A DNA stretch of 54,743 bases from Acidobacteriaceae bacterium. GTDB taxonomy: Bacteria > Acidobacteriota > Terriglobia > Terriglobales > Acidobacteriaceae. Of the stretch, positions 3,629 to 41,770 are shown in pieces. The stretch lies in contig JANXPR010000473.1 in NCBI GenBank assembly GCA_025357215.1, positions 1 to 54,743 of the forward strand. Direction: 5' to 3'. Numbering within the stretch: the stretch's first letter is position 1; every line of letters begins with the position of its first letter. Below the pieces are notes generated by a model. That model was not told the origin of the DNA. It worked only from the letters and a program-made list of their open reading frames with translations, and searched no databases. The position numbers and the translations under genes were made by a program.

Positions 3629-5209
3629 ATGCGGAGTCTAACACGCGCCGCCGTATGGAAGCCTGTTTTTTTGCTCGTGGCGCTCTCCGCGGCAGTGCCA
3701 TTGGTACATGGCTACCATCTGGGCGTAGAGGACCAGGCCATCTACCTTCCGGGCATTGAACAGAAGATCCACCCCAATCTTTTTGCCGCCGACGCTGAAC
3801 TTTTTCTTCCGCAAACACGGCCCACACTTCTGGTTCCGCTCGTCGCCTGGTCCGTTCGCACGACTGGTATGCCACTCGATGTCACCGTCTTTATCTGGCA
3901 CTTTCTGTCCATCTTTGCGCTGCTCTTTGCGGCCTGGCGGCTTGCCTGCCGTTGCTTTGCCCTGGAAGAAGCACGCTGGTGTGCCGTTGCTTTGCTCGCC
4001 GCGCTGTTCACCATGCCGGTGGCCGGGACGTCGATTTTTATCGTGGATACCTATCTTCATCCTCGCACCCTCGCGACGGCCCTGATTCTCTTGGCCATAG
4101 TGGACGTGCTGGACAGCGCAGTACTGGGCTTCAAAAAGTTAGACCGTCACATCGCACGCGCTATCCTGTGGATTGGGCTTGCTGCCACGATTCATATCCA
4201 GATGGCTCTCTACGGATTTCTGCTCTCCTTATTCTTAGGATGGAAACCAGGGCGGAAAGCAATGGCCCGAGTTGGCGATGGCGAACCGCCATCAGCCCCG
4301 GGAGCCACGACACAATCGACGACTATGGCTGCCGCATTTCCCTTACAGAGTCTTTTCCAGCCAGGGTCTGAAGCATGGAAAGAAGCTGCACGCACACGCT
4401 TCCAGCACTATTTATTGAATTGGGAATGGTATGAGTGGCTCGGCGCCATCGCCCCGCTGCTGTTCTTCTGGTGGTTCGTGAAGCTGGCCCGCCGCTCTGG
4501 ACTGGAGATGGTCGATTTAATTAGCCAGCGCGTCGCCGCGTTCCAGGTCTTCAGTATCGTATCCGCGCTCGTCCTAACGCTACCGCCGCAGTTTGAAAGA
4601 CTCACCCCATTTCAACCGATGCGCGCTCTCCATTTGGCCACGCTGATCTTCGTCCTGTTGGCTGGAGGCTTCATCGGACAATTCCTTCTGCGCCGCAGCG
4701 CGATCCGCTGGGCCCTGCTTTTCGCACCTCTGTGCGCGACGATGTTTTACGTTCAGCGGCAGATCTTCCCGGCTAGTGAGCACATTGAATTTCCGGGCCG
4801 AGCTTCACACAATCCATCTTCCCGCAATCCGTGTTCCCACAACCAATGGGTACAGGCTTTTCTGTGGGCAAAAAACAATACACCGGAAAATGCTTATTTC
4901 GCCCTGGATACCCACTACGTGGAGTTACCAGGCAACGACCAGCACGGCTTTCGCGCTTTCAGCCAACGCTCCATGATGGCTGACTGGAACAAGGATGGCG
5001 GCGTGGTCACGTTGTTCCCGGCCATCGCCGAACGCTGGCAACGCGAAACGCATGCGCGCGCGAATTGGAAGAATTTTTCTTCTGCTGACTTCCAGCATTT
5101 GCACGAACAATTCGGCGTGGGCTGGGTTGTTTTGGAAAAACCGATGAAGGTGGCGCTGAACTGTCCGTATGAAAATGCGCAAGTAGCAGTGTGCAAGGTT
5201 GCTGAGTAG
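3629..5209 (+). CDS. Polytopic membrane protein of unknown function (possibly GT-C-like), divergent from the GT2 gene
   Basis: 526-aa ORF with many hydrophobic helices in the first ~370 aa and a soluble C-terminal part. I recognised no motif. Confidence 0.6.
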   Translation: MRSLTRAAVWKPVFLLVALSAAVPLVHGYHLGVEDQAIYLPGIEQKIHPNLFAADAELFLPQTRPTLLVPLVAWSVRTTGMPLDVTVFIWHFLSIFALLFAAWRLACRCFALEEARWCAVALLAALFTMPVAGTSIFIVDTYLHPRTLATALILLAIVDVLDSAVLGFKKLDRHIARAILWIGLAATIHIQMALYGFLLSLFLGWKPGRKAMARVGDGEPPSAPGATTQSTTMAAAFPLQSLFQPGSEAWKEAARTRFQHYLLNWEWYEWLGAIAPLLFFWWFVKLARRSGLEMVDLISQRVAAFQVFSIVSALVLTLPPQFERLTPFQPMRALHLATLIFVLLAGGFIGQFLLRRSAIRWALLFAPLCATMFYVQRQIFPASEHIEFPGRASHNPSSRNPCSHNQWVQAFLWAKNNTPENAYFALDTHYVELPGNDQHGFRAFSQRSMMADWNKDGGVVTLFPAIAERWQRETHARANWKNFSSADFQHLHEQFGVGWVVLEKPMKVALNCPYENAQVAVCKVAE

Positions 5210-5231
5210 CGCACGGCGAATAGCGCGAAGC

Positions 5232-6572
5232 TTACTTGCGAACTGTCCGGGCCTTTACCACATAGGCGTCCAGTGTTCGCGCCAGCGATTCCGGCGCCTC
5301 CACTTCCAGTTGCACGTCATCGTCGCGATAGGCGCGTTTAAGAATGTGTGTGCGGGCTTCAATCTGCGCCAGCAGCTTGCCTTCACTCTGTGGAATGCGC
5401 AGCTTCATGGGGCGCAACGCGTCAATCTCCATGCGCTCATCGATGGCCGCCAGCAGGTCGTCCAGGCCCAGATGCCGCGCTGCCGAAATGTATACAGCCG
5501 AAGCCGTACTCTTCAACGACCGCCGTTGCGCTTCCGGCATCAGGTCAATCTTGTTCATCACGCGGATTTGCGGCGTGTTCTGGACTTCCAGGTCTTTCAA
5601 AACTTTCTCCACTTGCTGTTGCTGTTCCTGCGCCACCGGACTGGTCACGTCCCCCACGTGCAGCAGCAGCGCCGCGCGCTGGACTTCTTCCAAAGTGGCG
5701 CGGAAAGCCGTCACCAGTGTGGTGGGCAGACTGCGGATGAAACCTACCGTGTCCGATAGCAGCACTTTGCGTTTGCTGGGCAGAGTGATGCCGCGAATGG
5801 TTGGATCGAGCGTGGCAAACATTCGTGACGACGCAACTACGCCTGCGTCCGTGAGCGCGTTGAATAAAGTCGACTTGCCTGCGTTGGTGTAGCCGACCAG
5901 CGCCACTACCGGCAACGGCACGGCTTCTCTGCGCTGGCGCTGTTGCGCGCGCACGCGTCGAACTTCTTCTACCTGGAGTTTAATGTGCCGTATCCGCCGG
6001 TGAATTTTACGGCGGTCAGTCTCCAACTGCGTTTCACCTGGACCGCGCGTGCCGATGCCGCCGCCGAGCTGTGACATTTCAATGCCGCGCCCGGCCAGAC
6101 GAGGCAGCATGTATTCAAGTTGCGCCAACTCCACTTGCAACTGGCCTTCTCGGCTGCGCGCATGGCGCGCAAATATATCCAGGATCAACTGCGTGCGGTC
6201 AATCACCCTCGCCTGGACTTCATTTTCAATGTTGCGTTGTTGCGATGGCGTGAGTTCGTGATCGATCATCACCAGATCGGCTTCTGACGAAGCCACCGCC
6301 CCGGCAATTTCCTGCAATTTGCCAATGCCCAGCAGGGTTGCGGGATCAGGCCGGTCGCGGCGTTGAATGAATTCGCCCACAATTTCCGCGCCGGCCGAAG
6401 CCGCCAGTTCACGGAATTCGTCGAGCGAATCTTCCACGGACGTGCGCAGCATTCCTTCGCCGGCCGGGCCAGCAGTTTGCGGCACGACCTTTCGGCGGTC
6501 TGACTGTTTGGATGGATCGATTGGACCGGATTCGTCGGGTACGGAGCCTTTGCGCGCCGCTTCCCGCGCCAT
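5232..6572 (-). CDS. hflX: GTPase HflX (minimum ORF; the true start is probably upstream at ATT 6716, see findings)
   Basis: G1 motif [15 protein letters not shown], HflX N-domain [14 protein letters not shown]...[16 protein letters not shown], and a position directly downstream of hfq. Confidence 0.93.
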
Positions 6573-15464: not shown

Positions 15465-16598
15465 TTACCGCACTTCCAGCATCCGGTCCAGCGCTACTTT
15501 CGCCCAGTGCTTCACATCGTCAGGGACTTGAATCCGATTCACCACTTGTCCCTCCACCAGGTTTTCCAGCGTCCAGCACAAATGCTGCGGTGAGATGCGG
15601 AACATGGTGGTGCACAGGCAACCGGAGTCATCCAGGGTAATCACTTTTTTGTTTTCAGGCGCAAACTCCTTGCCCATGCGGTTCACCAGATGGATCTCCG
15701 TTCCCACCGCGAATTTGCTGCCGGCTGGCGCGTCTTTGATCATCTTGATGAGACCTTCGGTGGAACCGATGCCGTCCGCCTTCTGGCAGACTTCCCATCG
15801 GCATTCCGGATGGACGATGACTCTAATATCCGGATACTTTTCGCGGACGCGGTCCACATGCTCCGGCAAAAATCTCTGGTGAACGGAGCAGTGCCCCTTC
15901 CACAGAATCACTTTTGCCGCGCGCAGTTGTTCCGGCGTTAATCCGCCCAGGACCTTGAACGGGTCCCAGACGACGCAGTCTTCCAGCGGAATGCCCATGG
16001 CGTAGGCCGTGTTGCGTCCCAGATGCTGGTCCGGTAGAAAGAAGATCTTTTCGTTGCGCGCGAACGCCCACTTGAAAGCCGCACCGGCATTTGACGACGT
16101 GCAGACCAGTCCGCCGCGTTCGCCGCAAAATGCTTTGATCGCCGCTGTGGAATTCATATACGTCAACGGCGTAATTCCCTGGCCCTGTTCATTGGTCAGT
16201 CCGGCTTTTACAAACTCTTCCCACGCGGCTTCCACTTGGCCAATCTCCGCCATGTCGGCCATGGAACAGCCTGCGTTCAGGTCCGGCAGGATCACTTGCT
16301 GGCCGCTTTGGCCCAACACGTCCGCGCTTTCCGCCATGAAATGCACGCCGCAGAAGACCACGTAGTCGGCCTTGGTGCGCCCGGATTCCTGAGAAAGTTT
16401 GTAAGAGTCGCCGCGAAAATCGGCAAAACGGATCACTTCATCGCGCTGGTAATGATGGCCCAGCACGACCACGCGGTCGCCCAGGGCTTGTCTGGCCGCA
16501 CGAATGCGCGCGTCCATGGATTTGTCGGGGAGTACGAGATAGTTTTCCAGCGAACAAGTCTCAACTCGCTCGCCAACTGGAGCAATTACGGTCGCCAT
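15465..16598 (-). CDS. nadA: Quinolinate synthase NadA
   Basis: NadA motifs VFCGVHFMAESADVL, NAGCSMADMA, HPEC and GCLCTTMFRISPQHL. Start set at ATG 16598 because the track's upstream extension (to 16697) overlaps the riboswitch. Confidence 0.93.
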   Translation of the reverse strand: MATVIAPVGERVETCSLENYLVLPDKSMDARIRAARQALGDRVVVLGHHYQRDEVIRFADFRGDSYKLSQESGRTKADYVVFCGVHFMAESADVLGQSGQQVILPDLNAGCSMADMAEIGQVEAAWEEFVKAGLTNEQGQGITPLTYMNSTAAIKAFCGERGGLVCTSSNAGAAFKWAFARNEKIFFLPDQHLGRNTAYAMGIPLEDCVVWDPFKVLGGLTPEQLRAAKVILWKGHCSVHQRFLPEHVDRVREKYPDIRVIVHPECRWEVCQKADGIGSTEGLIKMIKDAPAGSKFAVGTEIHLVNRMGKEFAPENKKVITLDDSGCLCTTMFRISPQHLCWTLENLVEGQVVNRIQVPDDVKHWAKVALDRMLEVR

Positions 16599-16599
16599 T

Positions 16600-16720
16600 T
16601 TTTCCGCCTTCAGTTCCCACCGGCTTGATGCCGCGGGAACGGGGATGTTGAAAGCATCCGCGGGCTCCAGTAGATTCACTGCGCGTTTCGCGCCCAATCC
16701 ACGGGGTTGTTGAAGCCCAC
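16600..16720 (-). ncRNA. NAD+-I riboswitch (nadA motif), two tandem domains
   Basis: The minus strand reads GGGCUUCAACAACCCCGUGGAUU-GGGCGCGAAACGCGC-AGUGAAUCUACUGGAGCCC, followed by GCUUUCAACAUCCCCGUUCCC...GGGAACUGAAGGCGGAAAAA-AUG. The box UUCAACA(A/U)CCCCGU is repeated, closing stems are present, and the second domain's 3' strand overlaps the SD (GAAGGCGGA). Confidence 0.8.
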
Positions 16721-23929: not shown

Positions 23930-25102
23930 ATGGCCACTACATTGGCGCCAGAGTCCAATCCAGTTTTGAGCAATGAAGAAGTTTTGCGTTATTCGCGGCA
24001 CCTGATCATGCCGGAAGTGGGGATGCACGGCCAGCAGAAGCTGAAGGCAGCGCGCGTGTTGTGTGTTGGCACTGGAGGACTGGGTTCGCCGCTGGCCCTG
24101 TATCTGGCCGCAGCCGGCGTGGGCACATTGGGCCTGGTGGATTTTGACGTTGTGGATTTCACCAACCTGCAGCGCCAGATCATCCACCACACCAGTGATG
24201 TGGGCCGTCCGAAACTGGAATCGGCGAAAGAAAAGATTGCAGCCATCAATCCTTTCGTCAACGTGAAGACCTTCAACACGAAACTCACCAGCGAAAACGC
24301 TCTGCAGATCTTTGCCGACTTCGACATCATCGTGGACGGTACAGACAACTTCCCTACGCGCTTCCTGGTCAACGATGCCTGCGTCTTCACCGGCAAGCCA
24401 AACGTTTATGGATCGATTTTCCGCTTTGAAGGACAGGCCAGCGTCTTTGCCGCCAAAGACGGACCGTGCTATCGCTGCCTGTATCCGGAGCCGCCACCGC
24501 CGGGTTTGGTTCCTTCTTGCGCGGAAGGCGGAGTGCTGGGCATTCTGCCCGGACTCGTCGGTCTAATCCAAGCCACGGAAGCCATCAAACTGATTCTGGG
24601 CACCGGACAGCCTCTCATCGGCCGCCTGCTGCTCGTCGATGCGCTGGGCATGAAGTTCCGTGAACTCAAGCTACGCAAAAATCCCGATTGCGTGGTTTGC
24701 GGGAACCACCCCACAGTGACTAAACTCATCGATTACGAAGAATTTTGCGGACTACGTGGACAGGAGACACCTGTGAATCAAAGCGGCACACCGGAAATCA
24801 GCGTGGAAGAATTGAAGCAAAAGCTGGACGCCAAGGAAGATATCTTTATTCTGGACGTCCGCGAACCCCACGAATACCAGATCTGTAACCTTAACGGCTA
24901 CCTTATTCCTCTCAACGATCTTCCCAAACGCGTGAGCGAACTGGATCCTGCCAAGGAAATGGTCGTGCATTGCCGTTCCGGCGTCCGCAGCGGACGGGCC
25001 GTGGCGTTTCTCCGCCAGGCTGGCTTTACCAAAGCCACCAACCTTGCCGGCGGGATACTAGCCTGGGCCGATAGGGTTGACCCGAAAGTGCCGAAGTACT
25101 GA
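23930..25102 (+). CDS. moeB: MoeB/ThiF-type adenylyltransferase fused to a rhodanese domain (MoeZ-like)
   Basis: RYSRHLIMPEVGMHGQQKLKAARVLCVGTGGLGSP, Zn-site Cys pairs (CYRC and CVVC), and a C-terminal rhodanese with active-site loop HCRSGVRS. Confidence 0.9.
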   Translation: MATTLAPESNPVLSNEEVLRYSRHLIMPEVGMHGQQKLKAARVLCVGTGGLGSPLALYLAAAGVGTLGLVDFDVVDFTNLQRQIIHHTSDVGRPKLESAKEKIAAINPFVNVKTFNTKLTSENALQIFADFDIIVDGTDNFPTRFLVNDACVFTGKPNVYGSIFRFEGQASVFAAKDGPCYRCLYPEPPPPGLVPSCAEGGVLGILPGLVGLIQATEAIKLILGTGQPLIGRLLLVDALGMKFRELKLRKNPDCVVCGNHPTVTKLIDYEEFCGLRGQETPVNQSGTPEISVEELKQKLDAKEDIFILDVREPHEYQICNLNGYLIPLNDLPKRVSELDPAKEMVVHCRSGVRSGRAVAFLRQAGFTKATNLAGGILAWADRVDPKVPKY

Positions 25103-32548: not shown

Positions 32549-34120
32549 ATGGGCGAACCCACCTACCTTCTTTCTGTGCCCGGCTACAAACCCGGCAAAA
32601 AAGCCTTGCTGGTCTTTTTTGAGACCGACTGCCCCACCTGTCAACTGGCGTTGCCTTACCTTAATTCACTCGACTCGAACGCCGTGCAGGTACTTGGCCT
32701 CTCTCAAGATGATGAGACACACACCCGGGCCTTTGTGGAACAACTAAATCTCAAATACCCGGTCAACGTGGACCGCGGCCTGAAGCTGACGCGGGAGTTC
32801 GACCCGCAATCCGTACCCACCATGTACCTGCTGGATGAAAGCGGTCACGTGCAAAGTAGTCTGATCGGGCTGGACAAAGCGGCCATGAACACAATGGCTG
32901 CGGCCCTGGGACAGAAGACCATTGCTCCTCTCGACGACGGGACGCCGGCCTGGAAACCAGGATGCGGTTCGCGGCATTTGGAACCCGCGACTCAGGATGG
33001 ACACAGCGGCGCCGGAGATGTAAGCGAGGAATCCGCGAACGGTCCGCTGCTGCGGCGCATCGCCGAACCCGCCAGCCGGATCACGCTGCGTGACGACGAA
33101 GATCCGTTCGAATACTGCATACAGAAATTTGGTGACGCGCTACCAGTCATCCCACCGACGGAAGCAAAAGTCTCTGCGATGGTGACGGCATCCGGACTCG
33201 CGGCGGAAAACGTGATAGCCCGCGTGCCTCCCGTATACGGCGAAGCTACAGTAGAAAAGATTGCCGCCAACGCTGTGATGGCCGGCTGCACACCGGAGAT
33301 GATGCGCGTCCTGCTGCCGCTGGTACGGGCTGTTTGCGACGAAAACTTTAACGCCCACGGCGTCCAGGCCACCACGCATTTCGCCGCGCCCATCATCATC
33401 ATCAACGGGCCGGTTCGGCAGGAATTGGGATTTTGGTGCAAGCAAAACGTCTTCAGCAACGTGGCCCGCGCTAACAGCACAGTTGGCCGCGCGCTACAGT
33501 TGATCCTGCTGAACCTGGGCGGCGGGCGTCCGGATGGCATTGATATGTCGGCGCTGGGCAACTCCGCGAAATTTTCCTGCTGCATTGCGGAAAACGAAGA
33601 AGAAAACCCCTGGGAACCGTTTCACGTGGACCGCGGATTGCAACGCGACCAAAGCGCGCTTAGCCTGTTTGCCGCGGAGCCTCCGCGCGGCGTGAGTGAA
33701 CATACCGCCCAAAAAGGCGCTGTGGTGCTCAAAGCAGTTTGCCAGGCGCTGGCCACGGTATGGAGCTACCGCATCTGCATGAACCACGAAGCGATTGTTG
33801 TGTTGTGTCCGGAACACGCCAAGACGCTGGCGCGCGACGGCTTCACCAAACAACAAGTCCGGCAATTTCTTTTTGAAAATACCGGCGTGCCCAAGCGGCT
33901 CTACGCGGAAAAAGATACCGGCGAAGGCACGCAACTCGTCCCTTACTATCGCGAGATCATGATTCAGGGCGAGCCTTGTTACCAGAAATTCCGCTCGGCT
34001 GAATCGATTCACATCGTGGTCACCGGCGGGACGGCAGGAAAGTTTTCCGCTGTGCTGGGCAGCTGGGCTGTTGGACCAACAGGCAGTCAACTCGTCACAT
34101 ATCCAATTTCACCGAAGTAA
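32549..34120 (+). CDS. Fusion protein: N-terminal thioredoxin-fold (TlpA/redoxin-like, CPTC) domain plus ~380-aa uncharacterised Cys-rich C-terminal domain
   Basis: The N-terminal part reads KALLVFFETDCPTCQLALPYLNSL...VPTMYLLDESG. The C-terminal part has VEKIAANAVMAGCTPEMM, NAHGVQATTHFAAPIIIINGP and KFSCCIAENEE, and I recognised no family. Confidence 0.75.
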   Translation: MGEPTYLLSVPGYKPGKKALLVFFETDCPTCQLALPYLNSLDSNAVQVLGLSQDDETHTRAFVEQLNLKYPVNVDRGLKLTREFDPQSVPTMYLLDESGHVQSSLIGLDKAAMNTMAAALGQKTIAPLDDGTPAWKPGCGSRHLEPATQDGHSGAGDVSEESANGPLLRRIAEPASRITLRDDEDPFEYCIQKFGDALPVIPPTEAKVSAMVTASGLAAENVIARVPPVYGEATVEKIAANAVMAGCTPEMMRVLLPLVRAVCDENFNAHGVQATTHFAAPIIIINGPVRQELGFWCKQNVFSNVARANSTVGRALQLILLNLGGGRPDGIDMSALGNSAKFSCCIAENEEENPWEPFHVDRGLQRDQSALSLFAAEPPRGVSEHTAQKGAVVLKAVCQALATVWSYRICMNHEAIVVLCPEHAKTLARDGFTKQQVRQFLFENTGVPKRLYAEKDTGEGTQLVPYYREIMIQGEPCYQKFRSAESIHIVVTGGTAGKFSAVLGSWAVGPTGSQLVTYPISPK

Positions 34121-34146
34121 AGAAACAGGAAAGTAGAGGTTGACTT

Positions 34147-34677
34147 ATGCCGATCACTCTTGTTCATCCGGGTAACGAAAAAGTGGCCACCGCAGCCGCG
34201 CCGCCACCGCGACTTAGCACGCTGAGCGGAAAAAAAATCGGCCTGCTGGACATCAGCAAGCCGGGTGGCAGCCACTTCCTTGATCGCATGGAACAACTGT
34301 TGCGCCAAACTTACGGCGCTGCGGACGTTGTCCGCGTAAAGAAGCCCACATATACCAAGAATGCTCCGCAAGCGGTCATTGATCAGTTGCGTGGCATGGA
34401 CGCAGTCATCGAAGGTTTGGCCGATTGAGGATCGTGCACAACGTGCAGTTTGCACGATACGGTCCGCCTAGAGAATCTTGGAATACCCGCTGTAGCCGTC
34501 GCGACCACGGAATTCATGGCGCCCGCGCGAATTCAAGCTGGAGCGCTGGGACGTCCGGGCTTTGACGCTATTTACGTTCAACATCCGATCCAGGACCAGA
34601 CGCTGGAGCAGATTGCCGCGCGCGCGGATGCCGTGGCTGCGGAGATCGTGAAGCGACTAACCACAGCCGGGAAGTGA
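34147..34677 (+). CDS. UGSC-family selenoprotein (TGA 34426-34428 read as selenocysteine; 176 aa)
   Basis: Track ORFs 34147..34428 and 34450..34677 are in the same frame with no other stop between them. The joined sequence is ...DAVIEGLAD-U-GSCTTCSLHDTVRLENLGIPAVAVATTEF.... A hairpin follows the TGA directly. Confidence 0.8.
34431..34458 (+). promoter_or_regulatory. Bacterial SECIS-like stem-loop
   Basis: AUCGUGCA-C-AAC[GUGCA]GUU-UGCACGAU: an 8-bp stem, a bulged C, a 3-bp stem and a 5-nt apical loop beginning GU. It starts 2 nt after the UGA codon (at 34431). Confidence 0.65.
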
Positions 34678-34751
34678 CAAAAGTTTCAGCCCAGTGGCTG
34701 ACAACCATGTTTTACCGCCAGGTTCTGGGTAGAATTGAGCCATCAGGAAAG

Positions 34752-34785
34752 CCCGCTGCACGGCAAGCAGCGGGTCTTCCGTTTA
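34752..34785 (+). terminator. Weak terminator-like hairpin after the selenoprotein gene
   Basis: CCCGCTGC-acggcaa-GCAGCGGG followed by TCTTCCGTTT. The U-tract is poor. Confidence 0.3.
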
Positions 34786-35946: not shown

Positions 35947-36030
35947 ATGTTTACTCCTGTCGCCAACATGGCCATGTGCTGTCACACCATGGCTATGCGT
36001 GTGTTCACACAAAGGCAGACAGGTTCATAA
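35947..36030 (+). CDS. Met/Cys-rich leader peptide (27 aa) of a putative transcription attenuator
   Basis: MFTPVANMAMCCHTMAMRVFTQRQTGS* has 5 Met and 2 Cys in the first 17 residues. An intrinsic terminator follows 25 nt later. Confidence 0.55.
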   Translation: MFTPVANMAMCCHTMAMRVFTQRQTGS

Positions 36031-36055
36031 GCAAAGATTCATTCAGCAATTTTTG

Positions 36056-36092
36056 AACCCGCTGCCTCAGGGCAAGCGGGTTTTGTGCTTTT
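36056..36092 (+). terminator. Intrinsic terminator (attenuator) in the 5' leader of the ThrC-paralogue operon
   Basis: AACCCGCTGCC-TCAG-GGC(A)AGCGGGTT followed by TTGTGCTTTT. It lies about 95 nt upstream of ATG 36188. Confidence 0.65.
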
Positions 36093-36187
36093 GGGCCGGA
36101 AGAATCGGACTAAAGCAAGCTAGCAGACAGCGCAGCCGACGAGACATACCTGAGAGCAGCAGAAAACCGAGAGAAGATAAAAAGATC

Positions 36188-37522
36188 ATGAGCAATCAAG
36201 CCAGCACCAAGCCGAAACCGACGCAATTCTACGAACTGCGATGTCGCGAATGCCATACGCCGTGGGGCAACCAGCCGATTTCCTTCTGCCAGAAATGTTT
36301 CGCTCCGCTGGAAGTAGTGTACGACTGGGCGAGCATCAAGCCGCTAATCAGTCGCGACGAAATTGCCCGCCGCGGCACCACGCTGTGGCGCTACAAGGAA
36401 CTGCTTCCGCTTCCCGATGAATACGACGCTTCGCTTCCAGTGGGCTTCACGCCCCTGGTAAAAGCCGCGAACCTGGGTGACGCTCTTCCCGGCGGCAGCG
36501 CGCGCAACAAATCGTTGTACCTAAAAAATGACGCTTCCTGTTTCCCCACGTTGAGCTTCAAGGACCGCGTGGTGGCCGTGGCTCTGGCGCAGGCGCGCAA
36601 CTTCGGGTTTGAAGTCGTCAGTTGCTCTTCCACCGGCAACCTGGCGAACGCCGTTGCGGCGCAAGCCGCGCGCGGCGGATTCAAAGCCTGCGTGTTCATC
36701 CCGTCTGATCTGGAGTCCGCCAAAGTCTTGGGCACGGAGGTCTACGGCGCGCAGATCGTCCGCATTGCCGGCAATTATGACCACGTGAATCGCCTGTGCT
36801 CGCAGATCGCGGACAAACACCGCTGGGGATTTGTGAACGTAAACCTGCGGCCATACTATGCCGAAGGCTCGAAGACCGTAGGTTATGAAATTGCCGAACA
36901 ACTCGGCTGGCGCCTGCCGGACAACGTTGTCGTCCCCATGGCCGGCGGGTCTTTGATTACGAAAATCTACAAGGCGTTCAAAGAACTGGTAGAACTGGGC
37001 CTGGTGGAAGCCAAGAACGTCAAGTTCTTTGGCGCGCAAGCCACCGGCTGCAGCCCAATCAGTACTGCCGTTAAAGCCGGACGCAACGAGATCCAGCCGC
37101 AGAAGCCGGCAACAATTGCGCGCTCGCTGGCCATCGGCAACCCGGCGGACGGATTCTACGCGGCCCGCACTATCGCCAGCACCGGCGGCTGGGCGGAAGA
37201 CGCAAGCGATCCGGAAATTGTGGACGGCATCGCTCTGCTGGCCGAAACCGAAGGCATCTTCACGGAGACCGCGGGCGGCGTGACCGTGGCTTCCGCGCGC
37301 AAGCTCTACGCGCAAGGCCGCATCAAGCCGGAGGAAACTACCGTGCTCTGCATCACCGGCAACGGACTCAAGACCACCGACGCACTCGTCGGACGTTATG
37401 AAGCTTCCGAGCCCATCGCGCCAAAACTGGCGGCGCTTGAAGAATATCTTGAACAAAAACTGGTTGGCGTCTATGAAGCGTTTGGCGAAGCCCGCGCCGG
37501 AGCGCGTGGAGGTGTGCTGTGA
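36188..37522 (+). CDS. Threonine-synthase-family PLP enzyme with N-terminal zinc ribbon (paralogue; candidate sulfur-carrier-dependent homocysteine/cysteine synthase)
   Basis: CRECH...CQKC zinc ribbon and PLP-lysine context FPTLSFKDRVVAVAL, with ThrC-like sequence throughout. Start set at ATG 36188 because the track's upstream extension overlaps the leader and terminator. Confidence 0.85.
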   Translation: MSNQASTKPKPTQFYELRCRECHTPWGNQPISFCQKCFAPLEVVYDWASIKPLISRDEIARRGTTLWRYKELLPLPDEYDASLPVGFTPLVKAANLGDALPGGSARNKSLYLKNDASCFPTLSFKDRVVAVALAQARNFGFEVVSCSSTGNLANAVAAQAARGGFKACVFIPSDLESAKVLGTEVYGAQIVRIAGNYDHVNRLCSQIADKHRWGFVNVNLRPYYAEGSKTVGYEIAEQLGWRLPDNVVVPMAGGSLITKIYKAFKELVELGLVEAKNVKFFGAQATGCSPISTAVKAGRNEIQPQKPATIARSLAIGNPADGFYAARTIASTGGWAEDASDPEIVDGIALLAETEGIFTETAGGVTVASARKLYAQGRIKPEETTVLCITGNGLKTTDALVGRYEASEPIAPKLAALEEYLEQKLVGVYEAFGEARAGARGGVL

Positions 37523-37791
37523 GCGTTACCGTTTCAATTCCGTCGGCCTTCCGGCGGCACACAGAAGGCCTGGATCGCTTTGATGCATCCGCGGCGAACA
37601 TTAATGAACTCCTGGACGTTCTGGGCAATCGCTTCCCTGAACTCAAGCCGCACCTGCGCGATGAGCAAGGCAACGTCCGGCGCTTTCTGAATATTTACGT
37701 CAACGACGAAGACATCCGTTTTCTGGACAAGGACTACAAGTTCGCCGAAGGCGATGACGTAACGCTAGTGCCATCAATTGCAGGGGGGTAG
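37519..37791 (+). CDS. MoaD/ThiS-family ubiquitin-like sulfur-carrier protein ending in Gly-Gly
   Basis: 90 aa ending ...DDVTLVPSIAGG*. Its GTG start overlaps the upstream stop (GTGA), which suggests translational coupling. Confidence 0.85.
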   Translation: MSVTVSIPSAFRRHTEGLDRFDASAANINELLDVLGNRFPELKPHLRDEQGNVRRFLNIYVNDEDIRFLDKDYKFAEGDDVTLVPSIAGG

Positions 37792-38173: not shown

Positions 38174-38992
38174 CTACGCCAGCAACTCCAGGCGCTTCAC
38201 GTCGCTTCGGTTTTCGTCTGATTCCGCCAGTACTGGCGGAAGAAATTCACGCGCATCAATTCCTTGCTCGCCCGGCACGCGTCGCGCGACTTCGCCCACA
38301 ATCAAAATGGCCGGCGCGGCCACGCCACCGGCAAACGGCAAATCCAGTAAAGACATGAAGCATGTTTTCTGGTTGGCGCGCCCTGCGCTGGAGATCAGGA
38401 CCACGGGCGCGTTGCAATCCACGCCGGCTTCCATCAATTCGCGCGCTGTCTTGTTGTAGTCCGGTCCCGGCATGTAGACGGCAAAAGTTGTGCGCTGGGG
38501 ATCAAGCCCCGGGGTTCGGAGCTTGTCGCCACGGATGTTGTGTCCGGTAACGATCGCCAGCGCTGACGCCGAGTTGCGATCGGTGAGCGTGATGCCCGCC
38601 GTGGAAGCCGCCGCCGATGCCGCCGTAACGCCCGGCACGATTTCATAGGCTACGCAGGCCTTGCGCAGCGCGTCGAGTTCTTCACCCAGTCGTCCGAAAA
38701 CCGCAGGATCACCGGACTTGAGACGCACCACGGCCTTGCCCCGGCGCGCGTGCCAGATCATGAGAGCGTTAATCTGGGCTTGGTTGATTTGACCCTGACT
38801 GTTCGTCCGGTTGCCGCAACGTTTGCCAACGTTCACAATTCTGGCATCAGGCGCGGCTAGGGCGAGAATCTCCGGGGTCACCAGATCGTCATGCAAAACG
38901 ACCTGGGCCGCGCGTAACACTGCTGCGGCCCGCACCGTGAGCAAATCAGCCGAGCCTGGCCCGGCGCCTACGAGATGGACTTTCCCCGGCAC
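38174..38992 (-). CDS. cobA: Uroporphyrinogen-III C-methyltransferase (SUMT)
   Basis: VHLVGAGPGSADLLTVRAA...VVLHDDLV and VVRLKSGDPAVFGR. Confidence 0.92.
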   Translation of the reverse strand: MPGKVHLVGAGPGSADLLTVRAAAVLRAAQVVLHDDLVTPEILALAAPDARIVNVGKRCGNRTNSQGQINQAQINALMIWHARRGKAVVRLKSGDPAVFGRLGEELDALRKACVAYEIVPGVTAASAAASTAGITLTDRNSASALAIVTGHNIRGDKLRTPGLDPQRTTFAVYMPGPDYNKTARELMEAGVDCNAPVVLISSAGRANQKTCFMSLLDLPFAGGVAAPAILIVGEVARRVPGEQGIDAREFLPPVLAESDENRSDVKRLELLA

Positions 38993-39067
38993 TTAGTCGT
39001 GCTTCTCTCCAGCGCTTTCGCGCTTGTTTTCTTCGAGCATCCACGCACTTTTCTTTCTAACGAGAAC

Positions 39068-39289
39068 TTAGGCGCTCTTCATTTTTCGGGGAACGCTCAC
39101 GCGGCCACCTTCATATGAAACGCTACGCGCTTTTGCGAGAAGTGCGCTCTTCGTCCAGCCACTGTTCCACGGCCGAAAGAATGCGGCCACCAGTTGGTCC
39201 ACACCGCCGATCATGTGCAGACCTTCGTGCTGGTGCTCTTTCAATGCTTCGCGAATCTTGGTTTCCAATGGGGTTGCTTTCAGACTCAT
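39068..39289 (-). CDS. Small hypothetical protein (73 aa) inside the siroheme/sulfite reductase operon
   Basis: Start set at the internal ATG 39289 (MSLKATPLETKIREALKEH...), with GAGAGGTG just upstream. No recognised domain. Confidence 0.5.
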   Translation of the reverse strand: MSLKATPLETKIREALKEHQHEGLHMIGGVDQLVAAFFRPWNSGWTKSALLAKARSVSYEGGRVSVPRKMKSA

Positions 39290-39326
39290 GTTCACCTCTC
39301 GTTTCGGTTCACGTACTTTAGTTGGT

Positions 39327-39908
39327 TCACTCACTAACAAAAGACTTCGGCCTGCATAGTGCAATCAGATGCAGCAACTGCTTGCGGCGTTCGCCAGCCG
39401 GGAGTACATGGCGGAGGGTTGTCCGTATGCGCCCCAGCCACTCGGCGAATGGGCCAAACTCCGGCCCGTACTGCCGTTCCAAATTTTTTCGCACTTGCTG
39501 GGCCAGCGCCGGACTTTGTCCGCCGGTGGAAATGGCGATCTGAAACTCACCGCGGCTAACCACGGATGGCGTGTAGTAATCGCAGTATGCGGGATCATCC
39601 ACGGCATTGCCCAAAGCGCCGGCTTGCTGCGCGTCTTGATAGACTGCCCGATTTACGGCTTCCAATTCTGTGGCGCCGATCACCAGGAAAAAGTGACGCG
39701 CCATGCCAGCCTGGTACTCGGTTTCTTTGTGCTTGAGTAGGCCTTGCGCTGCCCACTGGGCGATGCGCGGCGAGATGCGCGGCGAAACAACGGTCACGTC
39801 CGTGGCCGAGCGCAACACGCCTTCCAGCTTTTCTTCGCCGATGTTTCCGCCGCCGACAACCAATACCTTGCGGCCTTCGAGTTTGAGAAAAATCGGATAG
39901 AGGGCCAT
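39327..39908 (-). CDS. Precorrin-2 dehydrogenase / sirohydrochlorin ferrochelatase (CysG N-terminal-type, SirC-like)
   Basis: MALYPIFLKLEGRKVLVVGGGNIGEEKLEGVL, a Rossmann-type motif typical of the siroheme synthase N-domain. Confidence 0.88.
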   Translation of the reverse strand: MALYPIFLKLEGRKVLVVGGGNIGEEKLEGVLRSATDVTVVSPRISPRIAQWAAQGLLKHKETEYQAGMARHFFLVIGATELEAVNRAVYQDAQQAGALGNAVDDPAYCDYYTPSVVSRGEFQIAISTGGQSPALAQQVRKNLERQYGPEFGPFAEWLGRIRTTLRHVLPAGERRKQLLHLIALCRPKSFVSE

Positions 39909-39916
39909 GTTTGTTT

Positions 39917-41689
39917 TTATCCTTCCGCTCCGTGGGGTACGCGACCCGGAGCTGCATCGCGCGCCACGGGAGCAACCGTTTCGCCCGCGAGGAACGTCCG
40001 AAGCTCCGCGTCCGAATGCCGCAAAAAAAACTTGCGCAGATTTTCGTTGGCTTCGCGCCGGACAAGATATTCGCGCAGCAAGCGCTCAATGGCGTCTGGG
40101 GCTTCCGTGGCCACGCAGCGGTAACCGACCGGCCTGCCAAACGCCGCGTATTCACCGACGGCGCCGCCCAGGCAGAAGTAGTAGGCGTCCTGCATGCGGC
40201 CATCGACTTTTAACTTCTTGCCTTCCAGACCGATGTCCGCGATGCGATGCTGCCCGCAGCTGTTGGGGCAACCGGTTACGTTGATCTTGAGCGGCTGGTC
40301 GAATTCCGGGAGACGTTCTTCCAGTTCGTCCACGAGCCAGCGCGTGTAGGACTTGGTTTCCGTGATGGCCAGCTTGCAGAACTCCGTTCCGGTGCAAGCC
40401 ACCGCGCCGCGCCAGAACGGCGAAGCTGTAACGTGAAGTCCGGCGTTTTCCAGGCCCTGAACCACGGCTTGCGTTCTTGCCTGAGGCACGTTCACGATCA
40501 CCAGGTTCTGCGCGATGGTAGCGCGCAGGTCGCCGGAACCGTATTGCTCGGCGAGATCGGCGGCGGCACGCAGTTGCTCCGGCGAGATGCGACCGCGCAA
40601 CACAGCAGCGCCAACGTAAAAAAGCCCCGGCAGTTTTTGCGGATGGACGCCGGCATGATCGCGAAATACATCTGCCGGAATTTCTTCCGGCACGCCCGGC
40701 GCGAGTTTGAATCCCAGCCGGCGCTCAACTTCGGCGAGAAAGCTTTCCGCCGTCCAGCCGTGTTGCAGGAAAAGAAATTTCAGACGGGCGCGTTCGCGAT
40801 TTTGGCGCAATGGCTCCGCGTTGCGAAAAATCTCGCTGATGGCTTTGGTCACCGGCAACATCTGTTCCCAGGCGACAAAAGCGTTCAGGCGCACGGCGAG
40901 GTGCGGATCAGTGGAAAGGCCGCCGACGACGCGGACGGAAAAGCCGATTTCCTTTTTGCCACCCTCGTCCTCACCACGAACTTCGCGTACGGCCGGAGTG
41001 AAAGCCAGATCGTTGATTTCTGGATAAGAGCACCAGTCGCGGCAACCGCTCACGCTGATTTTGTACTTGCGCGGAAAGTTGTAATAATCCGCGCTGCCGA
41101 CCAACAGCTTTTCCATCTGGGCCACAAGTGGCGAGGCGTCACAGATTTCGTGCGCGTCCAAACCAGCCAGCGGGCAGCCAGTGATGTTGCGAGTAACATC
41201 ACCGCATGTGGCAAGCGAAGTTAGACCCACGGCATCCAGTTGCTCCAAAACGTCCGGCAGATCCTGCACGGTGATCCAATGGAGCTGAATGTTCTGACGC
41301 ACCGTGATGTCCGCGGAACCGCGCGCGTATTTTTCTGACAATTCGGCGATCGTACGCAACTGGCGGGCACTGACGATCCCGTTACCTAGACGTATGCGCA
41401 GCATGAGGAAAGGCAGGGCTTTGCCTTCACCGTTGGCACCGCCGAGAACACCAGCGCCATCACCTTGCGTGTACACGCCCCACCAGCGGAAGTACGTCTT
41501 GATCCAGGCTTCAGGAACTTCGGTGAAGCCTCCGCGCGCAAAGCTCCGGATTTCTTCCAGACACTCCCAGGGATTTTTTTCGCGCTTGAGCCGCTCGGCC
41601 TTCTGCGCCTTGCTTTCCTTCACTACAGTACCGGGTGTGCCGATGGCCTGTGTGACCGTTGCTTGTGATCCGTTTATTTCCAAACCCAT
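39917..41689 (-). CDS. sir: Assimilatory sulfite reductase (ferredoxin-type nitrite/sulfite reductase, siroheme/4Fe-4S)
   Basis: Cluster-binding motifs CTGTEFCKLA and TGCPNSCGQH, with duplicated NIR_SIR-type sequence. Start set at ATG 41689 because the track's TTG 41728 lies in the terminator U-tract. Confidence 0.9.
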   Translation of the reverse strand: MGLEINGSQATVTQAIGTPGTVVKESKAQKAERLKREKNPWECLEEIRSFARGGFTEVPEAWIKTYFRWWGVYTQGDGAGVLGGANGEGKALPFLMLRIRLGNGIVSARQLRTIAELSEKYARGSADITVRQNIQLHWITVQDLPDVLEQLDAVGLTSLATCGDVTRNITGCPLAGLDAHEICDASPLVAQMEKLLVGSADYYNFPRKYKISVSGCRDWCSYPEINDLAFTPAVREVRGEDEGGKKEIGFSVRVVGGLSTDPHLAVRLNAFVAWEQMLPVTKAISEIFRNAEPLRQNRERARLKFLFLQHGWTAESFLAEVERRLGFKLAPGVPEEIPADVFRDHAGVHPQKLPGLFYVGAAVLRGRISPEQLRAAADLAEQYGSGDLRATIAQNLVIVNVPQARTQAVVQGLENAGLHVTASPFWRGAVACTGTEFCKLAITETKSYTRWLVDELEERLPEFDQPLKINVTGCPNSCGQHRIADIGLEGKKLKVDGRMQDAYYFCLGGAVGEYAAFGRPVGYRCVATEAPDAIERLLREYLVRREANENLRKFFLRHSDAELRTFLAGETVAPVARDAAPGRVPHGAEG

Positions 41690-41724
41690 GGTTCCCACTT
41701 TCTCGAACGCTTGCCTGGTTTCTC

Positions 41725-41770
41725 CCAAAAAAGCAAAAGGCCCATCACCTTGTCTGGCGATGGGCCCTTC
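41725..41770 (-). terminator. Intrinsic terminator (attenuator) in the 5' leader of the sulfite reductase operon
   Basis: The minus strand reads GGGCCCATC-gccagacaaggt-GATGGGCC followed by TTTTGCTTTTTTGGG, about 35 nt upstream of ATG 41689. Confidence 0.65.

Follow-up and report, generated by a model that had tools for sequence, protein, structure and literature searches.

UGSC proteins are among the most abundant selenoprotein families of aquatic metagenomes, yet they have no assigned function. The family has already been described as a selenoprotein family (PMC1976440, PMC2398784). The 2008 Global Ocean Sampling (GOS) paper counted 255 selenocysteine (Sec) forms in this established Sec/Cys pair family, proposed a "likely Trx-like fold" (Trx, thioredoxin) with a generic redox role, and noted a "UGSC/Unknown_1 fusion" (PMC2398784). 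A 2026 review lists the family with its NCBIfam model, NF041046, and gives UxxCxxC as the Sec motif of GrdB (PMC13188914), the selenoprotein B with which we compare UGSC below. The closest described RNA element is the Escherichia coli mini-SECIS (SECIS, selenocysteine insertion sequence), which spans positions 15-31, numbered from the U of UGA as 1, and has an essential G23 and U24 in its loop (PMC8659212). Here we analyze a UGSC-family gene at positions 34147-34677 of a 54.7-kb stretch of DNA (54,743 nucleotides; hereafter, the window) from an Acidobacteriaceae bacterium; Acidobacteria are known to have selenoproteins (PMC1794560). Since the UGSC family has been known from about 2007, with its function uncharacterized, the gene is known biology, correctly recognized but not new. 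Novelty is limited to side observations: the minimal geometry of the SECIS, a flavodoxin-like fold, a link to GrdB/PrdB and an unnamed partner domain.

The UGSC gene and its in-frame UGA

Two open reading frames (ORFs), 34147..34428 and 34450..34677, form a single frame of 176 codons whose sole interruption is TGA 34426-28. The first ORF stops at this TGA, the second lies in the same frame and stops at TGA 34675-77, and the 21 nucleotides (nt) between them, 34429-49 (GGA TCG TGC ACA ACG TGC AGT), are stop-free in frame. Read-through joins 93 amino acids (aa), U and 82 aa into a 176-aa product, which reads ...VIEGLAD-U-GSCTTCSLHDTVRLENLGIP... at the UGA and, over a wider span of the Sec position, ...AVIEGLAD-U-GSCTTCSLHDTVR. 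The redox motif is U94-G-S-C97-T-T-C100, a UxxCxxC motif that appears in the window as LAD-U-GSCTTC. It is highly probable that positions 34147-34677 are one UGSC-family selenoprotein gene with its UGA decoded as Sec, although the Sec insertion at UGA 34426-28 is something that we infer from sequence comparison. The two features are:

34147..34677, + strand: complete UGSC-family selenoprotein gene, Sec at codon 94, stop at 34675-77 (translation, profile scores, tblastn)
34426..34428, + strand: in-frame UGA, predicted to be read as selenocysteine (TGA conservation, alignment with Cys forms)

Membership of the family is directly supported. In hidden Markov model (HMM) searches, for which U was replaced by C, the joined protein scored 144.3 bits against NCBIfam NF041046 "UGSC family (seleno)protein" (curated cut-off 125, residues 28-172) and 160.6 bits against Pfam PF24696 "UGSC" (curated cut-off 25, residues 5-172). 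Both alignments cross the UGA uninterrupted and cover both halves. An earlier sequence-only reading of this DNA had proposed the two same-frame ORFs, the stop-free 21 nt and the 176-aa read-through product, and all of these sequence statements hold; what it says of the UGSC literature and the NCBIfam model is correct, and the HMM search that it proposed for the joined 176 aa returns both models above their curated cut-offs, with the matches spanning the UGA. It had also expected residue 94 to align with Cys. This is the case in P0014, P0017 and P0019 (ADCGSC), and at least 90% of 40 diverse representatives have Cys at the Sec position, in the context GDCGSC[TS]S[WC]. The third Cys of UxxCxxC is replaced by W in many of the Cys-form proteins among these 40.

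Conservation of the UGA was followed through 100 related loci, comprising 13 from Terriglobia/Ca. Angelobacter-type metagenome-assembled genomes (MAGs), 7 from an exact-protein look-up and 80 from metagenomes. The 13 MAG loci match the window protein full-length across the UGA in tblastn, with 75-83% amino-acid identity. At the Sec position, 96 of the 100 loci have TGA, 3 have TGC (Cys) and 1 has GGA, and the 96 TGA loci stem from soil, freshwater and marine samples. When the window was compared with 12 orthologues, the synonymous share of changed codons 3' of the UGA was 74% in frame versus 5% in each other frame, and the C-terminal half is therefore translated. The sequence-only reading had named homologues ending at the TGA, or halves occurring as independent genes, as evidence that would count against it; what is found is a conserved downstream frame under purifying selection.

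Most database relatives retrieved by protein search are proteins of ~100 aa that end ...LAD, as expected when a gene caller truncates at the TGA, and few are full-length. The window gene and its relatives in Terriglobia/Ca. Angelobacter MAGs are filed as ~100-aa truncated "hypothetical proteins", and these names need correcting. A 122-aa antisense ORF, 34087-34455 (-), overlaps the N-terminal half of the UGSC gene and came out longest when non-overlapping ORFs were picked naively; this ORF is in all likelihood spurious.

Two of the related loci are unusual. The locus with the GGA codon, L014, has a genuine Gly codon at 6277-6279, which is the source of the G in the database protein P0012. It keeps the mini-hairpin described below, with a G-U pair, and its domain X gene (4479-5973; see below) is broken by a frameshift; these oddities stem either from a module that has lately begun to decay or from errors in long-read assembly. 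Locus L002 (JBLMYN010000583.1) is labelled as an Actinomycetota MAG, yet it shares 79% identity and complete synteny (domain X, UGSC, proC, thrC-like, thiS) with the Terriglobia loci, and judging from this similarity the contig is probably mis-binned.

The RNA element 3' of the UGA

Three overlapping folds can be drawn directly downstream of the UGA, of which one is conserved:

34442..34456, + strand: conserved candidate mini-SECIS, stem CGUGCA/UGCACG (34442-47 with 34451-56), loop G-U-U 34448-50 (comparison of 84 sequences)
34429..34465, + strand: two-tier fold of lower stem (34429-36 with 34458-65), internal loop and mini-hairpin (minimum free energy (MFE) fold of 34426-34470, -16.8 kcal/mol)
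34431..34458, + strand: hairpin of the sequence-only reading, an alternative fold that shares the 3' arm and is not conserved (-13.1 kcal/mol; 84 sequences)

The conserved element has the consensus CGUGCA-GUN-UGCAYG. All six pairs of the mini-hairpin 34442-56 are canonical in 84 of 84 distinct Sec-type sequences, and the sole variation in any pair is a change from G-C to G-U at 34443/34455. The hairpin starts 13 nt past the UGA and occupies positions 17-31, counting the U of UGA as 1, so that G34448 is G23 and U34449 is U24; both are invariant in 84/84. Codon usage downstream of the UGA, counted over 89 distinct Sec-type sequences, is as follows:

Codon +1, Gly: 4 codons used
Codon +2, Ser: 5 codons used
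Codon +3, Cys: TGC 50, TGT 39
Codon +4, Thr: 4 codons used
Codon +5, Thr: ACG 88/88
Codon +6, Cys: TGC 89/89
Codon +7, Ser: AGT 89/89
Codon +8, Leu/Val: NTG, third base G throughout
Codon +9, His: CAC or CAT, either of which pairs with G

Codons +5 to +8 are thus without synonymous variation, whereas Ser, Cys and Thr at +2 to +4 are each spelled with 2-5 codons. The frozen synonymous sites, together with the frozen GU loop, show a constraint at the RNA level, and the hairpin 34442-56 most likely acts as a bacterial SECIS, as its sequence comparison suggests. In the Cys-form locus L020 a similar stem is retained and the loop differs.

The sequence-only reading had placed a SECIS-like hairpin 3' of the UGA, and a hairpin does exist there that is conserved in orthologues; the one that it drew, 34431-58, is not the conserved one. 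It consists of 8 base pairs (bp), a bulged C at 34439, 3 bp and the loop GUGCA (34443-47), and it is the MFE fold of 34420-34480 at -18.9 kcal/mol. In the 45-nt context 34426-34470, the conserved hairpin with the lower stem reaches -16.8 kcal/mol versus -13.1 for hairpin 34431-58. Of the 84 distinct sequences, 21 allow every one of its 8 outer pairs and 6 allow the full set of 11; of single pairs, 34434-34455 is canonical in 27/84 and 34440-34450 in 24/84. Its 5' arm is an upstream copy of CGUGCA that lies on freely varying synonymous sites. The lower stem of the two-tier fold (34429-36/34458-65) is weakly conserved, being 71% canonical over the 84 sequences, and a conserved lower SECIS stem was rejected because its two candidates are just 71-72% canonical.

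How does the hairpin compare with the SECIS of E. coli fdhF? The fdhF sequence used here is matched at 100% identity in the fdhF gene of 5,419 E. coli genomes. Both elements are coding-sequence hairpins that follow the UGA directly; they share a UGCA...UGCA(C) stem, the placing of G23 and U24 in the apical loop and an end at position 31. The 40-nt layout of fdhF is resembled by the ~40-nt two-tier fold of the window, with its optional lower stem. They differ in the loop, which has 3 nt (GUN) in UGSC versus 4 nt (GGUC) in fdhF, and in the distance from the UGA to the start of the stem, 13 nt versus 11 nt. With a 15-nt hairpin and GU at 23/24 set in a Cys-rich motif, UGSC probably offers a compact natural SECIS and a clean case of overlapping RNA and protein constraints.

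Several observations weigh against Sec decoding or against the hairpin as its signal. The conserved peptide C-[S/T]-[L/V]-H goes some way towards fixing four of the six stem pairs, and constraints on RNA and protein can be separated only through the synonymous-site analysis. The folding energy of hairpin 34431-58 has a z-score of -1.95, with 9 of 200 dinucleotide shuffles at least as stable; since this is barely beyond chance, support for a recoding element comes from comparison and not from folding energy. Rfam finds no SECIS family in the whole window at the gathering threshold, nor, at E<=10, in 34380-34520. Given how short and varied bacterial SECIS elements are, the missing Rfam match is uninformative. 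The UGSC hairpin is a perfect 6-bp helix that lacks the bulged U17 of the E. coli SECIS. That bulge is an E. coli-specific feature, and its absence weighs little. Finally, selA, selB, selD and tRNA-Sec are absent from the window, as judged by Pfam scans of ~40 ORFs and ARAGORN within these 54.7 kb, where no tRNA of any kind is seen.

Could the UGA be a true stop, so that the locus holds two small genes (93 and 75 aa) or one gene that a nonsense mutation or an error in sequencing has disabled? Gene callers do split the locus, 12 of the 19 rows of alignment A1 are database proteins ending ...LAD, and the 75-aa ORF could start from a TTG at 34450. We nevertheless regard this as extremely improbable: the TGA recurs in the 96 loci from soil, freshwater and marine samples, the intervening 21 nt specify GSCTTCS, the family's best-conserved motif, both the Pfam and the NCBIfam domain cross the stop, purifying selection acts in frame right after it, and the Cys-form homologues are single proteins. 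Two independent genes, or a pseudogene, are effectively refuted by the conserved TGA, the domain span and the downstream selection. Read-through that inserts Cys or another amino acid, by an opal-suppressor or tRNASec-like tRNA (for instance an allo-tRNA or a selC*-type tRNACys) or through reassignment of UGA, is very unlikely, though less so than a true stop. Acidobacteria also carry tRNASec-like allo-tRNAs, which have been proposed as suppressors (PMC5389517) and therefore leave a small residual alternative to Sec decoding; the Sec machinery not being seen in the window would fit, as would the G or W at the Sec position of some database translations (P0001, P0021), but the latter may reflect translation with an alternative code. 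TGA is the ordinary stop elsewhere in the window, ending the ThiF-rhodanese, LysR, PALP, aspartokinase and GGT genes among others, and because so many Pfam-validated genes end in this way, genome-wide reassignment of UGA is excluded. The conserved hairpin, with a SelB-type GU loop at the canonical distance from the UGA, and the 255 Sec forms that place UGSC among established Sec/Cys families (PMC2398784) likewise argue for Sec. A scan of the window for other in-frame TGA codons with at least 50 codons on each side gave no further selenoprotein candidate with a redox context.

The partner gene and its neighborhood

The gene upstream of UGSC ends 26 nt before the UGSC start codon:

32549..34120, + strand: partner gene, 523 aa (domain hits, linkage, fusions)

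In its product, a disordered linker connects an N-terminal thioredoxin/ResA-like domain (C29-P-T-C32) to a domain of ~350 aa that we call domain X. Redoxin, AhpC-TSA and ResA matches are confined to residues 15-108, and all of the top 50 Foldseek matches of a model of the 523-aa protein are to the Trx domain. Domain X (residues ~172-523) has no Pfam, NCBIfam or PDB sequence match; it contains an invariant Cys at residue 247, in NAVMAGC, and several more invariant motifs. Like ResA/TlpA/CcmG-type proteins, the N-terminal domain has the thioredoxin fold and a CxxC (CPTC), with its best sequence and structure matches to ResA, StoA and DsbE. Unlike them, it is fused to the 350-aa unnamed domain and scores far below the equivalog cut-offs. 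The protein collection contains more than 4,000 partner homologues, and every one takes its name from the Trx-like quarter alone ("TlpA family disulfide reductase", "peroxiredoxin"). Such names cover just a quarter of the length and need correcting.

Linkage of the two genes was counted over the 91 loci whose upstream flank is 600 nt or longer. Domain X adjoins UGSC on the same strand in 84 of them, at 30-43% protein identity to the window, lying upstream in 82 and downstream in 2 Cys-form loci. An exhaustive profile search gave 4,756 representative clusters at E<=1e-3, and the best 150 of these representatives include 12 full-length single-chain UGSC-domain X fusions of 528-574 aa (P0167, P0206, P0207, P0218, P0222, P0230, P0235, P0242, P0254, P0267, P0299 and P0300), in which a Cys-form UGSC is N-terminal and domain X is C-terminal. 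They probably correspond to the "UGSC/Unknown_1 fusion" of the GOS paper. The fusions are Rosetta-stone evidence that both window genes work together.

The remaining 7 of the 91 loci have UGSC without domain X. They form a Sec-type clade (L048, L053, L054, L057, L067, L072 and L087, with 600-2900 nt of flank) in which transporter permease-like, hydrolase-like and other ORFs replace domain X. Six of these seven UGSC genes have Val (GUG) at codon +8 and ACG-ACN after the Asp; L087 has ACA-ACC.

Beyond the pair, 113 flanking ORFs were classified with Pfam. They include 8 major facilitator superfamily (MFS) transporters, 7 acyl-CoA dehydrogenases, 4 CoA-transferase III and 3 RraA-like proteins; the set is heterogeneous, and no conserved third gene is common among the 113. 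In the Cys-form locus L020 (1759-6564), the genes of a tripartite ATP-independent periplasmic (TRAP) transporter (DctP, DctQ, DctM) immediately precede domain X-UGSC, in the same orientation and with small gaps, which may hint at an imported organic acid as the substrate of the module. Together, the scattered neighbors (MFS and TRAP transporters, acyl-CoA dehydrogenases, CoA-transferases) suggest a small organic acid or amine as a possible substrate.

Two signals flank the UGSC gene itself:

34135..34139, + strand: Shine-Dalgarno-like AGAGG, 7 nt 5' of ATG 34147 (a putative site, from sequence inspection)
34751..34775, + strand: terminator-like GC-rich hairpin with a U-rich tail, 74 nt past the UGSC stop (pattern match in a consensus scan)

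The latter hairpin is likely to mark the end of a two-gene operon. A theme of sulfur assimilation and sulfur carriers is seen near the locus, at 23930-25102 (+), 35999-37791 (+) and 38174-41728 (-), with ThiF-rhodanese (MoeZ-like), CobA, a siroheme synthase domain and a sulfite/nitrite reductase; a ThrC-like pyridoxal phosphate (PLP) enzyme overlaps a ThiS-family carrier by 4 nt. These genes suggest thiocarboxylate-dependent amino-acid biosynthesis, with no established link to UGSC. Further away, two tandem nadA-motif riboswitches (RF03013), at 16606-16655 and 16663-16717 (-), score 49.7 and 60.6 bits and sit where the quinolinate synthase nadA ORF 15465-16697 begins; the listed start of this ORF probably overextends into the leader.

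Fold, possible function and relation to selenoprotein B

An AlphaFold2 (AF2) model was made of the Cys homologue P0017, which is 45% identical to the window protein. It has a predicted local distance difference test (pLDDT) score of 87.8, a predicted template modeling (pTM) score of 0.81 and five beta-alpha units, with the C/U-G-S-C motif between strand 3 and the N-terminus of helix 3. The best Foldseek matches in the PDB are 3hly, FprA flavodoxin domains and flavodoxins (E ~1e-4, TM-score ~0.45-0.5), and no Trx-fold protein is among the top 50. The thioredoxin fold suggested in 2008 is therefore not borne out by the beta-alpha x5, flavodoxin-like model of P0017, and the UGSC protein is predicted to be a flavodoxin-like alpha/beta domain of ~19 kDa. 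Single-sequence and profile searches of UGSC and domain X against PDB sequences gave nothing meaningful.

A remote similarity to selenoprotein B of glycine/betaine/sarcosine reductase (GrdB, GrdH, GrdF) and of D-proline reductase (PrdB) is seen directly in the HMM searches. The window protein matches TIGR01917 (GrdB) with E 3e-4 and 19.8 bits, residues 68-157 aligning to profile positions 323-404 of 431, far below the family cut-off of 602.2 bits; it also weakly matches GrdF. Matches among the 40 UGSC representatives are:

TIGR01917 (GrdB): 12/40, best E 2.9e-10
TIGR01918: 8/40
GrdF: 8/40
GrdH: 6/40
PrdB: 4/40

On these profile matches, UGSC is remotely homologous to the Sec-bearing region of selenoprotein B; with scores far below the family cut-offs, it is not a member of that family.

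What might the two genes do together? We tentatively put forward a model of a UGSC-partner relay, drawn by analogy with the B proteins of glycine and D-proline reductase, that we see as possible and short of probable. Its starting point, the decoding of UGA 34426-28 as selenocysteine in translation, is itself highly probable, and the mini-hairpin 34442-56 would recruit SelB-GTP-Sec-tRNASec by presenting loop G23/U24 in the geometry of fdhF. UGSC would then be the selenol/thiol redox subunit of a two-gene module with 32549-34120, in which domain X would be the substrate-handling partner. Sec94 would act as the nucleophile on a substrate or partner adduct, C97 (and C100) would resolve the Sec94 adduct with formation of a Se-S bond to C97, and reduction of that bond would fall to the CxxC domain of thioredoxin type that is fused to domain X. 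The selenol/thiol relay, the direction in which its electrons flow and the binding of SelB are to be read as proposals. Weighing against such a module are the 7 loci with UGSC and no domain X, the heterogeneous flanks with no common third gene, and the finding that domain X has no detectable similarity to GrdE/PrdA (no Pfam match at E<=1).

It is also possible, though rather unlikely, that UGSC is a genuine selenoprotein that works as a stand-alone thioredoxin-like oxidoreductase in antioxidant defense or disulfide exchange, its neighbor being merely syntenic. This would agree with the Trx-like fold and generic redox role proposed in the GOS paper (PMC2398784), with the domain X-less loci and with the lack of similarity between domain X and GrdE/PrdA. 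The P0017 model is flavodoxin-like and not Trx-like, however; domain X remains adjacent in 84/91 loci at just 30-43% identity, and single-chain fusions recur; and HMM matches fall consistently on the Sec region of GrdB, GrdF, GrdH and PrdB. Returning to the relay between UGSC and its partner, a broader extension, likewise possible and short of probable, is that the [Trx-like]-domain X and UGSC pair, or fusion, could be an undescribed selenium-dependent reductase system that is widespread in aerobic soil, freshwater and marine bacteria, with UGSC as a minimal relative of the GrdB/PrdB catalytic center, domain X as the substrate-binding subunit and the Trx-like domain as a built-in reductant. 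If true, such a system would take Stickland-type Se-C or Se-S reductive chemistry beyond anaerobic fermenters. Three leads, the near-obligatory partner domain, the flavodoxin-like fold and the remote homology to GrdB/PrdB, open the function of UGSC to experiment.

The window protein has the same full-length domain as the "UGSC-containing protein" that Zhang and Gladyshev described (Hyphomonas neptunium, Olavius symbiont, GOS). Common to both are the U-G-S-C motif, the Sec/Cys dichotomy and the mis-splitting by gene callers. The described proteins come from aquatic sources whereas the window copy belongs to a soil Terriglobia/Ca. Angelobacter-like acidobacterium, and the window protein, unlike the described family, carries the extended UxxCxxC version of the motif; nothing essential differs. 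The comparison with selenoprotein B is a more distant one. No grdA, grdC, prdC or pyruvoyl proprotein genes are found in the window or among the 113 neighboring ORFs, and the partners of selenoprotein B, the pyruvoyl proproteins GrdE/PrdA, are unrelated to domain X. UGSC is also shorter (~176 aa versus ~240-435 aa), and its hosts are aerobic soil and water bacteria, whereas those of selenoprotein B are amino-acid-fermenting anaerobes. The similarity of UGSC to GrdB, GrdH, GrdF and PrdB is centered on the Sec region, with UxxCxxC in both, and UGSC, like selenoprotein B, would need another protein encoded beside it and plausibly a reductant of the thioredoxin type.

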